This document shows, one piece after another, positions 58,620 to 63,736 of a stretch of 64,000 nucleotides of DNA (within the stretch, counting starts at the first letter, position 1; each line of letters starts with the position of its first letter). The translations under genes were made by a program, and so were the position numbers. The notes beneath the pieces are model-generated. The model was not told where the DNA came from. It saw nothing but the letters and a program-made list of their open reading frames with translations, and searched no databases. This DNA comes from Deltaproteobacteria bacterium (GTDB taxonomy: Bacteria > Myxococcota > Kuafuiibacteriia > Kuafuiibacteriales > Kuafuiibacteriaceae): positions 1 through 64,000 of the forward strand of contig JAVJQW010000006.1 of the NCBI GenBank assembly GCA_040218735.1, read 5' to 3'.

Positions 58620-59399
58620 TCAAAGATCCGTGGGGGCGCGGTCGAGGACATCCTCTTCCGCCATGAACACCGTGGGCTCGGCCCACCCATCCGGGACCTC
58701 GCCGTCGTCTCCGAGCAGCACGGTCTGCGGCGTCTTCGTCGGCAGGCCGGTGCGCGGCATCGAGGGATCGATGCGCTTGGGGAGCATCATCTCCACGGCG
58801 TCCGCGAACAGGCGCGCCTCCTTCGCCGCGACGCTGCGCGGCGCGATCGACACGACGGGCACGCCTTCGATCATCGCGCGCTCGTGCTGCGGGCGATCCG
58901 ACAGCGCGACGTTCATCAGCCAGTCGCGCGGCACGAGGCTCGCGCCGGCGAGGCGGGTGGTGCCGCGCGGGCCGCGCGTCCAGAAGACGCCGACGCGCAA
59001 CCACGGGCGGAGGCGCTGCGCTTCTTGAGCGAGCGCGAGCGTCGGGGTGAGGGTGTCGGTCGAGAGCACGCCCGGTATCACCGGGATGAGCACGACGTCC
59101 GACGCCATCATCGCGTTCCACTGCTTTTCTCGATCCATCGACGGCGTGTCGACGATGCCGACGTGGCCGCTCTGTTCGATGTGCTCGAGGAGCAGGTCGG
59201 GGCGAAGCAGCGCGCCGGCGAGCGCTTCGACGTGCACGTCGCACTGCGTTTCGAGCGCCCATCGCGTCGCGGCGCGGAAGGGATCACCGTCGATGAGGTC
59301 GACGCCTCGGCCACGCCGCGCAAGCTCGCCTGCGAGCGTGATGGTCGTGAGTGACTTGCCCGAACCCCCCTTGAGCCCGACGACCGCGATGACCGGCAT
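58620..59399 (-). CDS. ParA family ATPase (orphan)
   Basis: Deviant Walker A LKGGSGKS, LIDGDP, IVDTP, SDVVLIPV. Confidence 0.85.
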   Translation of the reverse strand: MPVIAVVGLKGGSGKSLTTITLAGELARRGRGVDLIDGDPFRAATRWALETQCDVHVEALAGALLRPDLLLEHIEQSGHVGIVDTPSMDREKQWNAMMASDVVLIPVIPGVLSTDTLTPTLALAQEAQRLRPWLRVGVFWTRGPRGTTRLAGASLVPRDWLMNVALSDRPQHERAMIEGVPVVSIAPRSVAAKEARLFADAVEMMLPKRIDPSMPRTGLPTKTPQTVLLGDDGEVPDGWAEPTVFMAEEDVLDRAPTDL

Positions 59400-59443: not shown

Positions 59444-59920
59444 TCAGCGACCGAATTTCTTCCACGCGTCCGGCAACGGCGCGTTCAGCAACCTCTCTGC
59501 GGAACCACCATCGAGCAGAACGAACTTCAACGTCGCCTGACATGCCACTTCTTCGTTCTGACTGATCATGACCTCGACCTCGATCACGCGGCGGTTCGCG
59601 TTCACGACGCGCCCATGGCCCACCGTCTCGACGCCGATGCGCACGGGACGCTTCAGGCGGCACTCGGCGTGCGTCGTGAAACCGAACTTGCCGAGCTTCT
59701 CGATGATCGCCCACGCCGCGACTTCGTCCGCTAGCGTCATGACCAGGCCGCCGTGCATGACACCCGGCGGTCCCTGGTAGCGATCGTCGGGGACGAACCG
59801 CGTCACGACCCCGCCATCCTCGCGCTCGAACGCGAGGCGAAAGCCGATCGGGTGCGCGGGCGCGCAGCCGAAACACGGTTGGTCTTCACCGAAGAGGCGG
59901 CCGTCGAGGGGCTCGTTCAT
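59444..59920 (-). CDS. PaaI-family (hotdog) thioesterase
   Basis: CFGC..HPIG, YQGPPGVMHGGLVMTLADE. Confidence 0.88.
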   Translation of the reverse strand: MNEPLDGRLFGEDQPCFGCAPAHPIGFRLAFEREDGGVVTRFVPDDRYQGPPGVMHGGLVMTLADEVAAWAIIEKLGKFGFTTHAECRLKRPVRIGVETVGHGRVVNANRRVIEVEVMISQNEEVACQATLKFVLLDGGSAERLLNAPLPDAWKKFGR

Positions 59921-60002
59921 GCTCCGGCCGTAACAAGCCGCCCGCTCCGCGGCGACCCGAGAATTGACATGGAAACGTTTGTTCAGTATCTCGGTCCTCA
60001 GG

Positions 60003-60620
60003 ATGGTCCTCGCCCAGCGCTCCCTGTTCGGGACGAATGACGCACCCCGCATCGATCGCCGCCTCACGGGGCTCCGTCGCGTCGAGCTCGGCGACGGCGC
60101 CTGGATCGATCACCTGCCCGGGTGGGTCGAGGGGCACGCCGTGCTGTTCGACGCGCTGCGCACCGCGATGCAGTGGCGTACGGCGAAGCGGCCCATGTAC
60201 GACCGCATCGTCGACGTCCCGCGGATGCTCGCGTCCGTCCCGGACGACGGCGTGCCGCCGCCGGTGGTCGACGACATCGCGCTCGCGCTCTCGGCGCAGT
60301 ACGGGCTCCTCTTCGAGTTCGTGCACATGGCGCTGTACCGCGACGGCCAGGACAGCGTCGCGATGCATGCCGACCACGTCCTCTTCGACACGATCGTCCC
60401 GATCGTCTCCGTGGGTACGCCGCGCAAGTTCGTGCTGAAGCCGGCGAACGGCGGACCGTCACGCGCGCTCACGCTGGGGTGGGGCGATCTGCTGGTCATG
60501 GGCGGGACGTGTCAGTCCACGTGGATGCACGGCGTCCCCAAGACCAAACGCCACGCCGACCCGCGCATCAGCATCATGTTCCGCACCCAAGCGAGTCGGG
60601 TAGGCCAACGCCAAGACTGA
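60003..60620 (+). CDS. AlkB-like 2OG-Fe(II) dioxygenase
   Basis: MYDRIVDVPR, LYRDGQDSVAMHAD, GDLLVMGG, WMHGVPK, RISIMFR. Confidence 0.88.
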   Translation: MVLAQRSLFGTNDAPRIDRRLTGLRRVELGDGAWIDHLPGWVEGHAVLFDALRTAMQWRTAKRPMYDRIVDVPRMLASVPDDGVPPPVVDDIALALSAQYGLLFEFVHMALYRDGQDSVAMHADHVLFDTIVPIVSVGTPRKFVLKPANGGPSRALTLGWGDLLVMGGTCQSTWMHGVPKTKRHADPRISIMFRTQASRVGQRQD

Positions 60621-60642: not shown

Positions 60643-61311
60643 CTAACGGCCCGTGAAGCCCTTCACCGCGTCGAGGATCTCCTGGCCGTCGGCGTTTTCG
60701 TTCCCCGACGGGGTGCCGTGCGTGGAGATGTACTCGATGACCATCGTGTCGCGCGGGACGATCAGGTCGAAGCCCCGGCCGATCGCAAACGGCGAGTTGT
60801 CGAACGCGCGCGCGACGGGCGCGGTCTCGCCGTCACCGACGCAGACCCCGCGGTCCGCGCCGAACCCGCGAATCGTGTCGTAGCAGCTCTGCGCCGTGCC
60901 CGGCTGCGAACGTGAGTTCGCCTCGAGCACCCAGATGATCCCGGCGCCCGCGGCTTCGATTTGATCGTCGTACTCGGCCACCGACCTGGCGTGCCTGATA
61001 CAGGCGCTTCACCAGGCCGGGACGGACACGAACAACAGGACGTCGAACGGGCTCCAGTCCATGTCGTCGTCGGTGTCACAGTGCGCGTGTTCGAGGTCGA
61101 GCGCGGTCATCGCCTGGTCTTCGAGCGCGCGCGCGCTCGCCCAGCGATAGGGCCAGATCACCTGGTCCTCGGTCATCGGCTCGATCGCGCCGTCCGGATA
61201 GGCGCACGCTCCGGTGCGGGGGCCGCCGTCGCGCACGATGGCGTCCGCGGGGATGCCGTTCTGTCCGCAGGCGAAGCCGACCAGCGAGGTCAGCGCGATC
61301 CACCACCGCAT
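60643..61311 (-). CDS. probable selenocysteine-containing thioredoxin-fold (TlpA/redoxin-like) lipoprotein, UxxC motif
   Basis: ORFs 61009-61329 and 60643-60981 are in one frame separated by a single TGA (61011-61009): LLFVSVPAW-TGA-SACIRHARSVAEY; lipobox VGFAC. Confidence 0.8.
60977..61008 (-). promoter_or_regulatory. putative bacterial SECIS element
   Basis: Directly 3' of the UGA: ...GCCA-GGUCGG-UGGC hairpin with a G-led loop about 23 nt after the UGA, reminiscent of the CAGGUC loop of the E. coli fdhF SECIS. Confidence 0.55.
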
Positions 61312-61376
61312 CGGCGGCAAGCGTGCCACGGCGAGCGGTTCATTGGCCAGTTGGGGGATGTTAGAACGGCGGTCCC

Positions 61377-62249
61377 GTGTCCCACGCCGTCGACAGCCCG
61401 TACCTAGTCCCCTTCGACGAGAGGTTCGACCTCGACCAGGCGCAGACCGCGCCCCCGAAGGACGCGCCGAAGAAGAAGGCGCTCGAGGACCAGCTCGACG
61501 ATCACGTCGATCGCCTCGCGAAGATCCAACGCAAGCTCTACGCCGACGACCGCTTCTCCGTCCTCGCGGTCTTCCAGGCGATGGACGCCGCCGGCAAGGA
61601 CAGCACGATCCGGAAGGTCTTCTCCGGCGTGAACCCCGCCGGCTTCCAGGTGACGCCGTTCAAGAAACCGTCGTCGACGGAGCTCGACCACGACTTCCTC
61701 TGGCGCACCACCCTCGCGCTCCCCGAGCGCGGCCGGATCGGCGTCTTCAACCGCAGCTACTACGAAGAGGTCCTCGTCGTACGCGTGCACCCGAAGATCC
61801 TCGAGTACCAGCGCCTCCCGAACGTCGACGCGTCCACGATTTGGGACGAGCGCTTCGCGTCGATCGCCGACTTCGAAAAACACCTCGCGCGCAACGGCAC
61901 CGTCGTCGTGAAGTTCTTCCTCAACGTCTCCAAGGACGAGCAGAAGGCGCGCTTCCTCGCGCGTCTCGACGACCCGAAGAAGAACTGGAAGTTCTCCGAG
62001 GGCGACCTCGACGAGCGCGAGCACTGGGCCGACTACCAGGCCGCGTACCAGGACGCCCTGCGGCGCACGTCGCGTCCGAACGCCCCGTGGTACTGCATCC
62101 CGGCCGACGACAAACCGTTCATGCGTGCCACGGTCGCGTCGATCCTCGCGGACACGATCGAGGGACTCCCCCTGCGTTGGCCGGAGCTGTCCGCCGAAGA
62201 GGAGGCGAAGGTGCCCCAATGGCGGGCCCGCCTCGACGCCGACCGGTAA
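61377..62249 (+). CDS. ppk2: polyphosphate kinase 2 family protein
   Basis: FQAMDAAGKDSTI, FKKPS..ELDHDFLWR, IGVFNRSYYEEVL, KKNWKFS, APWYCIPADDK. Confidence 0.92.
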   Translation: MSHAVDSPYLVPFDERFDLDQAQTAPPKDAPKKKALEDQLDDHVDRLAKIQRKLYADDRFSVLAVFQAMDAAGKDSTIRKVFSGVNPAGFQVTPFKKPSSTELDHDFLWRTTLALPERGRIGVFNRSYYEEVLVVRVHPKILEYQRLPNVDASTIWDERFASIADFEKHLARNGTVVVKFFLNVSKDEQKARFLARLDDPKKNWKFSEGDLDEREHWADYQAAYQDALRRTSRPNAPWYCIPADDKPFMRATVASILADTIEGLPLRWPELSAEEEAKVPQWRARLDADR

Positions 62250-62305
62250 GGGATACCTAAAAGCCCTTGGAACGGGGTCCGCGGCGGTGCTACGAACGCG
62301 CCACC

Positions 62306-63736
62306 GTGGAGTTCCCGACGATCAAGTTCGTCTACTTCGCGCTCATCACGCTGACGATCAGCTGGCTCCTCTTCCAGAAGCGCACGGTCCAGAAGGTCTT
62401 CCTCCTCGCGGCGTCGTACTACTTCGCGTGGCAGTGGAAGCCGCTGTTCCTCGGCGTCATCGTCTTCTCGTCGCTGATGAACTACGGCTTCGGCCGCGCG
62501 CTCACCGCGATGCGCGGCCACCCGAAGCGGCAAGCCGTGTTGACGGTGGGGCTCGTCGCGAACCTCGGCGTCCTCGGGTTCTTCAAGTACTACGGCTTCT
62601 TCATCGAGAACCTGCAGAACCTCACCGACCTGCTCGGCCTGTCGGTGCACCTGCCGATCCTCGAGGTGCTCGTCCCGTTCGGGATCAGCTTCTACACGTT
62701 CCAGGGGATGTCGTACCTGGTCGACACCCACCGCGACCAGGCGGTGCAGCCTCAGACGCTGCTCGACTGGATGCTGTTCATCAGCTTCTTCCCGCAGCTC
62801 GGGGCCGGGCCCATCTGCCGCTCCCACGAGCTGCTCCCCCAGCTGCACGCCCCCGCGCCCGCGCGCATCGAGCGGCTCTCCGAGGCGGTCGCGCTGATCG
62901 GCACCGGCCTCTTCAAGAAGATGGTGATGGCGACCTACCTCGCGTCGCACACCACCACGGACGCGTTCCTGTTCCCGAAGAACTGGTCGACCGTCGAGCT
63001 CGTGCTCGCGACCTACGCGTACACCGCGCAGGTGTACCTCGACTTCTCGGGCTACACCGACATCGCGCGCGGCGTCGGGCTGCTGTTCGGCTTCGACATC
63101 CCCGAGAACTTCAACTACCCGTACCGCGCGACGAACATCGGCGACTTCTGGCGCCGGTGGCACATCACGTTCTCCACCTGGCTGCGGCACTACATCTACT
63201 TCCCGCTCGGCGGCTCGCGGAAGGGGAAGCTGCGCACGTACTTCAACCTGATGGTCACGTTCGTCTCGTGCGGCATCTGGCACGGGGCGTCGTGGGGTTA
63301 CATCATCTGGGGCGGTCTGCACGGCATCGGGCTGACCGTGTACAAGGCGTCGCTCGACATCCGGCGTGACCTCGGCATGAAGGCCGAGGGGCCCTGGCCG
63401 TGGTGGTGGTCCGTCATGGGTTGGTTCATGACGCTGTCGTTCTGCGCGTTCGCGCGCATCTTCTTCAAGACGCCGGACCTCGTCACTGCGTTCGACTTCT
63501 GGGGGGTGCTGTTCTCGTTCACCGGTCGGGGCGCGGGCCTCGACGTCGGCGTGTTGTTCCTGACCTTCCTCACCATCTTCATGAACTTCTACGGGCGCCC
63601 GGTGTTCGACGCGCTCGTCAACCTCCACGACAAGATCCCCGCCATCGCGCGCCCCGTCGCGTGGGCGGCGATGATGCTCGCGCTGTTCACGCTCAAACCC
63701 GAGGGCATGGCGGCGACGATCTACTTCTCCTTCTGA
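62306..63736 (+). CDS. MBOAT family O-acyltransferase (AlgI-like)
   Basis: PFGISFYTFQ, SFFPQL.AGPI, DFSGYTDIA, ENFNYPY, FWRRWHIT.S.W..YIY, GIWHGA. Confidence 0.92.
   Translation: MEFPTIKFVYFALITLTISWLLFQKRTVQKVFLLAASYYFAWQWKPLFLGVIVFSSLMNYGFGRALTAMRGHPKRQAVLTVGLVANLGVLGFFKYYGFFIENLQNLTDLLGLSVHLPILEVLVPFGISFYTFQGMSYLVDTHRDQAVQPQTLLDWMLFISFFPQLGAGPICRSHELLPQLHAPAPARIERLSEAVALIGTGLFKKMVMATYLASHTTTDAFLFPKNWSTVELVLATYAYTAQVYLDFSGYTDIARGVGLLFGFDIPENFNYPYRATNIGDFWRRWHITFSTWLRHYIYFPLGGSRKGKLRTYFNLMVTFVSCGIWHGASWGYIIWGGLHGIGLTVYKASLDIRRDLGMKAEGPWPWWWSVMGWFMTLSFCAFARIFFKTPDLVTAFDFWGVLFSFTGRGAGLDVGVLFLTFLTIFMNFYGRPVFDALVNLHDKIPAIARPVAWAAMMLALFTLKPEGMAATIYFSF

Follow-up and report, generated by a model that had tools for sequence, protein, structure and literature searches.

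An in-frame UGA that is almost certainly a selenocysteine codon in the gene of a predicted thioredoxin-fold lipoprotein from Myxococcota

We analysed a gene on the minus strand of a 64,000-nucleotide (nt) stretch of DNA from a Myxococcota bacterium (positions 1 to 64,000 of contig JAVJQW010000006.1, assembly GCA_040218735.1; hereafter, the window). The reading frame of this gene is interrupted by a single in-frame TGA, which is almost certainly a selenocysteine (Sec) codon. The gene very probably encodes a selenoprotein in which UGA is recoded by means of SelB and a hairpin located in the coding sequence, and the product would be an exported, lipid-anchored oxidoreductase with a thioredoxin fold. 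This interpretation is carried by the conservation of the codon, the recoding signals, the Sec machinery of the source genome and the fold of the protein.

The minus strand shows the codons ccg gcc tgg TGA agc gcc tgt atc, the TGA occupying 61011..61009, and the preliminary description of this DNA, which had noted an in-frame TGA between P-A-W and S-A-C-I, was right in this respect. Two open reading frames (ORFs) in the same frame, 61329..61009 and 60981..60643, are divided solely by this codon. With U for the TGA, the frame runs uninterrupted from 61329 as far as the TAG at 60645..60643, and translation from the ATG at 61311 yields the joined protein of 222 residues that had been described. 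This product begins MRWWIALTSLVGFAC and carries Sec101 within VLLFVSVPAW-U-SAC. The ATG at 61311 is supported as the start because the nearest orthologue opens with MRGWIAMMSLLGFAC; a GTG at 61329 is an alternative start. Near-identical strains from three other studies (X5, X6, X7) have G replaced by C at both 61314 and 61317, just upstream of the ATG. If translation started at the GTG, these would be changes at first codon positions (Pro to Ala), so that the ATG is weakly favoured. Local G+C content is about 68-69%, the same as in the surroundings. Seven of the first ten family genes use TGA as their genuine terminal stop and, consequently, TGA is not reassigned genome-wide.

We observed the TGA in every homologous locus examined. 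A six-frame search of the source genome gave a second copy, 47% identical and with one TGA (LLFVSLDAW-U-PDC), plus three distant copies without stops, which read GAGWCPYC, GAGWCGVC and SAEWCGPC. In 7 of 61 related genomes there are 10 close homologues (46-100% identity), each with exactly one TGA, always in the same alignment column (10/10). When 401 genomes of the phylum were searched, no match at E up to 1e-25 lay outside these 10 places. In 185,579 species genomes we found 29 loci, every one of them with TGA at the site; they come from Plesiocystis pacifica SIR-1, two strains of Enhygromyxa salina and numerous Myxococcota metagenome-assembled genomes (MAGs), among others, and 8 of these 29 share the 60-mer that follows the TGA with loci already found in the related genomes. 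A metagenome scan gave 19 loci, all with TGA (18 by pattern, L105 by inspection). The same codon is thus TGA in 58 of 58 homologous loci (10 + 29 + 19). After removal of identical proteins 50 rows were left, corresponding to 39 distinct 45-mers past the TGA. Since the search patterns carried Cys at the site, the searches could not favour TGA. In the protein databases profile searches were needed, as a word-index search with the single protein gave only 2 fragments. The family is found in Nannocystaceae-like Myxococcota, mostly from marine or aquatic metagenomes, and three of the seven carrier genomes (G000, G011 and G049) contain two copies. In a ten-member alignment, invariant residues are present on both sides of the TGA.

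Further information about the recoded position was obtained from proteins that carry Cys instead. When 1.84 billion representatives were searched with a profile, 342 of them matched with an E of 0.001 or lower, and the best 150 of these were sorted. Among these best 150, 52 carry CxxC (P0066 being a distant SCPAC form). One protein, P0004 (NCBI MEO1268513.1, from a Myxococcota MAG; 247 amino acids (aa), 250.7 bits), represents the same clade at full length but with Cys, reading IPAW-C-PDC. The 51 other CxxC proteins are distant, mostly longer, and nearly all WCxxC. The search for homologues with Cys or TGA at the site therefore gave both, TGA in all 58 loci and Cys in P0004 and in distant relatives, and it bears out the proposal that the TGA takes the place of the first Cys of a WCxxC motif. 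With 39 distinct TGA forms against one known Cys form, the use of Sec is almost obligate in this clade.

The source genome (11.6 Mb, 70 contigs, 96% complete) was also searched for selA, selB, selC and selD, and all four are present. SelB (341 bits) is encoded on the same contig as the gene, selA and selD score 493 and 326 bits, and tRNA-Sec reaches 70.4 bits against a gathering score of 47; all four components are above the curated cut-offs. Moreover, selD (L010, G000:C18:152317-153240) has its own in-frame TGA at the canonical site (LSGG-U-AAKLG), which indicates that the Sec system is in use in this genome. Past the selD TGA, 60 nt of sequence form a longer stem-loop at -23.6 kcal/mol. Six of the seven carrier genomes contain selB, and the seventh, G001, is only 75% complete. 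Conversely, in 10 genomes of the taxonomic family without selB the gene is absent from 9, G001 being the exception.

A SECIS-like hairpin (selenocysteine insertion sequence) begins 13 nt past the UGA and occupies nt 17-36, counted from the U of UGA. It consists of 7 pairs and one bulged A (A20): the outer three pairs join nt 17-19 to nt 34-36, the inner four join nt 21-24 to nt 30-33, and the 5-nt loop is AGGUC. The hairpin given previously, GCCA-GGUCGG-UGGC, marks the place of a real structure, but the actual one is larger. RNAalifold, applied to ten sequences, independently returned the same structure with 70 of 70 cells paired. Pair 17-36 is G-C in five of the ten sequences and C-G in the other five, while pair 22-32 is G-U, A-U or G-C. 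Because base 17 is the second base of an Arg or Thr codon and base 36 is the synonymous third position of an Ala codon, the covariation of 17-36 couples a protein change to a silent one. Three versions of the hairpin are found at one and the same place: type A, with a bulge on the 5' side; type B, in Plesiocystis and Enhygromyxa, with a bulge on the 3' side; and type C, a perfect helix with loop CGUGA or CGGGA. More double changes are present in L075 (C-G to U-A), L099 (G-C to A-U) and L105. A hairpin of at least 6 base pairs (bp) with its loop centred at nt 25-29 was found in 31 of 31 distinct Sec members and in 0 of 11 distant Cys relatives, with mean folding energies of -11.1 and -5.6 kcal/mol, respectively.

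In a 2026 review, bacterial SECIS elements are described as having an apical loop of 3-9 nt, an upper stem of 4-16 bp, a G in the first two loop positions, a distance of 16-37 nt from the UGA and a minimum free energy at or below -7.5 kcal/mol (PMC13188914). The window hairpin agrees with these published constraints (loop AGGUC, spacing of 21 nt, 4-bp upper stem plus 3 pairs, -10.6 kcal/mol), so the claim of a hairpin at SECIS distance stands. We coded the constraints ourselves and applied them to the 39 distinct sequences. Loop size, loop G and a spacing of 21-22 nt were found in 39/39, the energy in 38/39, and the full set in 32/39. Six of the remaining seven fail on contiguous stem length, owing to the bulge, and L065 fails on energy (-6.6 kcal/mol).

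The two halves of the protein build one domain. An AF2 model of the 187-residue mature domain has a mean pLDDT (predicted local distance difference test) of 93.2 and a pTM (predicted template modelling score) of 0.91, and shows a single domain that spans the TGA. In this model strand 56-63 is followed by U66 and by helix 67-78, placing the redox motif at the N-terminus of helix 1. A Foldseek search of the PDB gave at least 500 matches at E up to 0.001. The best structural match was 4nmu_B (Z 14.9, root mean square deviation (rmsd) 2.4 over 140 residues in VIA-align), with ResA and AhpC at Z about 14, and the structural matches are 10-15% identical in sequence (Foldseek, VIA-align). The redoxin-like features mentioned in the preliminary description thus correspond to a modelled thioredoxin fold whose nearest neighbours are TlpA/ResA-type oxidoreductases and peroxiredoxins (Prx). 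Sequence searches were less informative: AhpC-TSA (PF00578) scored below its Pfam cut-off (12.6 against 26 bits, E 0.13), no NCBIfam model matched the window protein at E up to 10, and a PDB sequence search gave nothing significant (best E 0.063).

Upstream of the domain the protein has a predicted signal peptide with a lipobox-like end, MRWWIALTSLVGFA-C, in which the Gly at position -3 is non-canonical. A hydrophobic stretch followed by [A/G/S]-C is present at this place in 25 of 31 distinct members by pattern, and we recognised four more leaders by eye (L032, L023, L070 and L071). The lipoprotein signal that had been proposed for the window protein is a predicted lipoprotein-type leader of a kind seen across the family. 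In most members the linker after the leader Cys is rich in D, G and T and very variable in length. In the own-genome Sec paralogue (L023, G000:C32:6509-7108; 47% identity) the lipobox is followed by a long repeat linker rich in D, G and R (GGGAPRDGGGAPRDGGGAPRDGG). The linker of L038 / L084 (G049:C21) contains about 30 Gly-Asp dipeptides (GDGDGD...), and this protein has an extra C-terminal tail ending in DICE.

Residues C1, C43, U66, C69, H72, C108 and C122, the VGD motif and R144-G145 are invariant in the ten-member alignment (domain numbering). Cys1 and Cys43 are kept in the distant Cys relatives too; Cys43 is likely the disulfide partner of Cys1, and all four of C1, C43, C108 and C122 may form disulfides. 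The preliminary description had remarked that the usual cis-Pro appears to be lacking. In sequence alignments, Arg144-Gly145 aligns with the [FY]-Pro of the Cys relatives, and the remark appears to hold for this clade, including P0004, which also has Arg-Gly at the cis-Pro place.

According to these data, we propose the following mechanism. SelB and Sec-tRNA(Sec), recruited by the hairpin in the coding sequence, would recode the UGA at 61011..61009 to selenocysteine. The lipoprotein-type signal peptide would direct export of the product, which, to judge from the leader sequence, would be anchored by a lipid at Cys15, and a short linker would join this anchor to the single thioredoxin-fold domain. 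Sec101 and Cys104 (W-U-S-A-C), where a beta strand ends and helix 1 starts, would occupy the classical redox-active position. By analogy, the protein is most likely an extracytoplasmic thiol/selenol-disulfide oxidoreductase cycling between selenolate/thiol and selenenylsulfide. It would be similar to TlpA/ResA/CcmG-type reductases, except that Sec would be the attacking residue; the redox chemistry, the direction of electron flow and the substrate are what we infer in this scheme.

Of the TlpA/ResA/CcmG-type proteins (for example PDB 4nmu, 1st9 and 1su9), 4nmu_B is the best-scoring structure of all, aligned over 140 of 140 residues, and ResA scores Z 13.5-14.0. Proteins of this type share with the window protein a W-C/U-x-x-C motif at the start of helix 1 and an anchor in the membrane outside the cytoplasm, which is predicted in our case. 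In contrast to them, the window protein is only 10-12% identical, has Sec for the first Cys and, as far as the alignments indicate, lacks the cis-Pro. The Pfam scan of flanking ORFs gave no cytochrome-maturation or Sco-type neighbours.

Several observations weigh against our interpretation. The energy of the window hairpin is not significant by itself, with a z-score of -0.19 and 88 of 200 shuffled sequences folding as well. When synonymous codons were resampled, the mean energy was -10.13 kcal/mol compared with -11.14 for the native sequences, a gain of only about 1 kcal/mol; 2 of 200 replicates reached the native mean, and 1 of 30 sequences was individually below 0.05. The amino-acid sequence and codon bias account for most of the hairpin stability. 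Few pairs carry the covariation, as 5 of the 7 are invariant in the first ten sequences, and the tree forces just 1-2 independent hairpin switches on well-supported branches. As the energy is not significant and the resampling is marginal, the case for the hairpin rests on its fixed position, its covariation and its absence from Cys relatives. As for function, the Pfam Redoxin model (PF08534) stays below its cut-off (17.1 against 26.6 bits, E 0.0049), and the missing cis-Pro means that the protein may not act as a canonical TlpA-type reductase. A comparison of 68 flanking ORFs from 16 loci and 5 window ORFs with Pfam gave no conserved partner and no functional clue; since the neighbours are unrelated across the 16 loci, the function is not readable from the operon. 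Finally, no RNA run holding the stretch was found, a blank that proves nothing. A search of Rfam gave no match in 60900-61060 at E up to 10.

We kept one other reading of the function, because of the Arg-Gly and the Prx-like structure, although we consider it rather unlikely. In it the protein is a genuine selenoprotein, but a peroxidase-like one that reduces peroxides or a small oxidant at the cell surface, with Sec or Cys104 attacking and Arg144 acting in the manner of the catalytic Prx Arg. Peroxiredoxins are among the best structural matches (AhpC, TSA1/2 and LsfA, Z 13.5-14.2), and the peroxiredoxin group as a whole (AhpC, TSA, BCP and AhpE) ties in structural score with the TlpA-like group. 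The only PDB sequence alignment (Asp f3, E 0.063) matches U66 with the Thr of Prx and C69 with its peroxidatic Cys, and the Pfam AhpC-TSA model, whose match to the window protein is weak, reaches E 0.0012 with P0004. The Arg of Prx probably occupies the cis-Pro position. In the window clade the cis-Pro is replaced by an invariant Arg-Gly, an Arg near the start of the strand after the active-site loop is common to peroxiredoxins and the window protein, and in the Prx enzymes encoded by this genome the same strand is directly preceded by Arg (RSVFIVD, RSVFVIN and RKTYVID). However, the motif is UxxC (P-A-W-U-S-A-C) and not TxxC (P-x-x-x-T/S-x-x-C), with Sec where Prx has Thr, and the Pfam matches are below threshold. 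Besides, sequence alignments put Arg144 one residue before the cis-Pro position, so that its equivalence to the Prx Arg is putative. In hhalign the protein matches the Prx of its own genome more weakly (E 0.13, probability 0.4) than TlpA-like proteins (E 0.0029, probability 10.6); both alignments cover the active-site region only and stop before Arg144. A thiol/selenol-disulfide oxidoreductase is the reading that we prefer.

It could also be argued that translation ends at the UGA, giving a lipoprotein of only about 100 residues, with the downstream half either forming a gene of its own or remaining untranslated. Public gene calls correspond exactly to such N- and C-terminal halves, as anticipated by the claim that standard pipelines would split the gene. 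Among the best 150 of the 342 matches, 67 end at ...PAW or similar by pattern and 8 more on inspection, and C-terminal halves account for 15 by pattern and 6 more on inspection. For the C-terminal half by itself, a second, alignment-based search found 150 clusters (90% identity), and its 120 listed matches are all pieces of 105-123 aa. UGA is, moreover, an ordinary stop of several family genes. We nevertheless find this explanation very improbable: in the model, the halves would build one compact domain whose active site is made of the strand before and the helix after the TGA, the Cys forms are continuous proteins, and the position of the TGA has not drifted across the 39 distinct sequences. 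In addition, the codons between the TGA and the first downstream start (U-S-A-C-I-R-H-A-R-S) are conserved, and among them one Cys is invariant and one His nearly so. Well over a hundred database entries would be repaired by a family model that has Sec at the site. Of the matches listed, 19 of the 19 with a name, including one from the cultured strain Pseudenhygromyxa sp. WMMC2535, are "hypothetical protein", and so is P0004.

The least credible alternative, namely that the UGA is read through without selenium (by a near-cognate Trp or Cys tRNA or a suppressor) or that it marks a decaying pseudogene or an assembly error, can draw on one gene call with W at the site (P0037), but the homologous residue in natural continuous forms is Cys and never Trp, the gene co-occurs with selB in 6 of 7 carriers, the hairpin is conserved, the identical placement of TGA in 58 of 58 loci rules out decay, and, as positions 61009-61011 are identical in contigs from three other studies (X2 record 1, X5 record 8 and X6 record 13), faulty assembly is excluded as the origin of the TGA. 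On the conserved TGA, the agreeing contigs, the Cys homologues and the hairpin we accordingly rejected the readings as a pseudogene, a sequencing error, two genes or TGA as Trp. P0037 itself reads FVSIPAW-W-SACARH, with an N-terminal part that resembles out-of-frame junk; the W implies that the gene caller took TGA as Trp.

The family is a new or unannotated one of a well-known kind, the UxxC thioredoxin-fold selenoproteins, with a biochemical function that we infer. The 2026 review tabulates over a hundred prokaryotic selenoprotein families, many of them thioredoxin-fold UxxC, and its Table 1 lists UxxC families such as 'Prx-like thiol:disulfide oxidoreductase', 'thiol-disulfide isomerase-like' and 'Redoxin family' (PMC13188914). 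As far as these catalogued UxxC selenoproteins are described there, they are similar to the window protein in their thioredoxin or redoxin fold, in Sec as the first residue of the redox pair, in having Cys homologues and in a SECIS just downstream; the window clade differs from them in Arg-Gly for cis-Pro, in four extra invariant Cys and in being almost always Sec. The GOS family 'Prx-like 3' is listed in Table 2 of PMC2398784 as pfam08534 with an e-value above 0.001, which the weak likeness to PF08534 found here parallels. We considered whether the window family might be Prx-like 3. The two printed examples of the latter have lipoprotein-like leaders too and read FASW-U-GDCQAH; compared by eye, they differ from the window family both in this motif and downstream. 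In the GOS 2008 supplementary sequences (PMC2398784), PAWU, PAFU, AWUPAC, AWUSAC and FVSIP had no match, and RGFD was present only in an unrelated context (FYARGFDK). A literature search linking selenoprotein or selenocysteine with Myxococcota, Plesiocystis, Enhygromyxa or myxobacteria found nothing relevant. It is thus tempting to propose, as a tentative view that we would put at slightly short of even, that the family has been described by no paper or curated model, and that it is a lipid-anchored, extracytoplasmic family with near-obligate Sec whose Arg-Gly suggests a reaction that is neither classical TlpA-type disulfide reduction nor classical Prx chemistry.

No kind of bacterial selenoprotein is commoner than the UxxC thioredoxin-fold proteins, so this one would cause a specialist no great surprise. 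The unusual details are the near-obligate use of Sec, the predicted lipoprotein anchor and the Arg-Gly in place of cis-Pro; otherwise the kind is ordinary. The family adds a predicted extracytoplasmic, lipid-anchored selenoprotein to the large-genome Myxococcota. In this respect, the Sec forms with Arg-Gly and the Cys relatives with cis-Pro provide a natural pair for comparing Sec with Cys outside the cytoplasm.

The distant Cys relatives (L024-L026 of the same genome; P0016, P0019, P0123 and others) are lipoproteins, as judged by their leaders, that usually carry Big_2 domains, extra C-terminal domains or both. Sequence identity amounts to 24-31% in 11 of 12 genome places and to 20-31% in the alignment. 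They share with the Sec clade the C-x-Y-P, H-C, W-C-x-x-C, VGD and VVR-x-SDM motifs as well as the lipoprotein-type leader. They differ from it in having Cys for Sec, in keeping the cis-Pro ([FY]-P-[TSA]) and in being without Cys108, Cys122 and the hairpin. The redox domain of this wider Cys lipoprotein family has no Pfam match above threshold. L024, L025 and L026 (G000:C58, C6 and C1) carry Big_2 Ig-like domains ahead of the redox domain, and L026 has a long C-terminal extension.

The coordinates of the gene, its elements and its neighbours are collected in Table 1. Both flanking genes lie on the strand opposite to the selenoprotein gene, which stands alone, and none of the window neighbours is obviously linked to it.

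Table 1. Positions in the window of the selenoprotein gene, its parts and the neighbouring genes.
Feature	Position	Strand	Remarks
Whole gene, Sec-containing predicted lipoprotein with thioredoxin-fold domain	60643..61311	-	222 codons and TAG stop at 60645..60643
Predicted signal peptide with lipobox-like end MRWWIALTSLVGFA-C	61267..61311	-	Cys15 is the predicted lipidation site, read from the sequence
Mature thioredoxin-fold domain	60646..61206	-	187 residues, CAYP... to ...FTGR; ten-member alignment, AF2 model
Invariant Cys1, C-x-Y-P motif	61204..61206	-	Kept in distant Cys relatives too
Invariant Cys43, HC-D motif	61078..61080	-	Kept in distant Cys relatives too
UGA, almost certainly read as selenocysteine	61009..61011	-	Residue 101 of the protein, residue 66 of the domain
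Invariant Cys of the U-x-x-C motif	61000..61002	-	Domain residue 69 (ten-member alignment)
SECIS-like hairpin GGC-A-CGCC AGGUC GGUG-GCC	60976..60995	-	Loop 60987..60983
Invariant Cys108	60883..60885	-	Only in the Sec clade and its Cys member P0004
Invariant Cys122, CVGD motif	60841..60843	-	Only in the Sec clade and P0004
Invariant Arg-Gly	60772..60777	-	Domain residues 144-145; distant Cys relatives have Phe/Tyr then cis-Pro there
Polyphosphate kinase 2 (PPK2)	61377-62249	+	Flanking gene
AlkB-like 2OG-Fe(II) oxygenase	59964-60620	+	Flanking gene
MBOAT acyltransferase	62267-63736	+	Window neighbour
4HBT thioesterase	59444-60067	-	Window neighbour
ParA/MinD-like ATPase	58620-59399	-	Window neighbour

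At the other loci, the recurrence of CorA, methyltransferase and trypsin neighbours is confined to L066 and L075, two closely related loci. In G016 a second short match without a stop (L029 / L042, G016:C548:6013-6102; query residues 39-68, 47% identity) lies just upstream of the family gene, and no leader was found for it; this short copy may have arisen by frameshift or partial duplication, or may reflect faulty assembly close to the end of the contig. Three further neighbours, all related to redox or chalcogen chemistry, were each seen in a single case and are not conserved across loci. An ORF for a thiopurine S-methyltransferase (L068:3375-4226) overlaps the family gene at its 3' end, a gene for an M48 peptidase that also has a TerB domain (L081:536-1852) is located upstream, and a DsbA-like gene (L085:3525-4229) follows just downstream.

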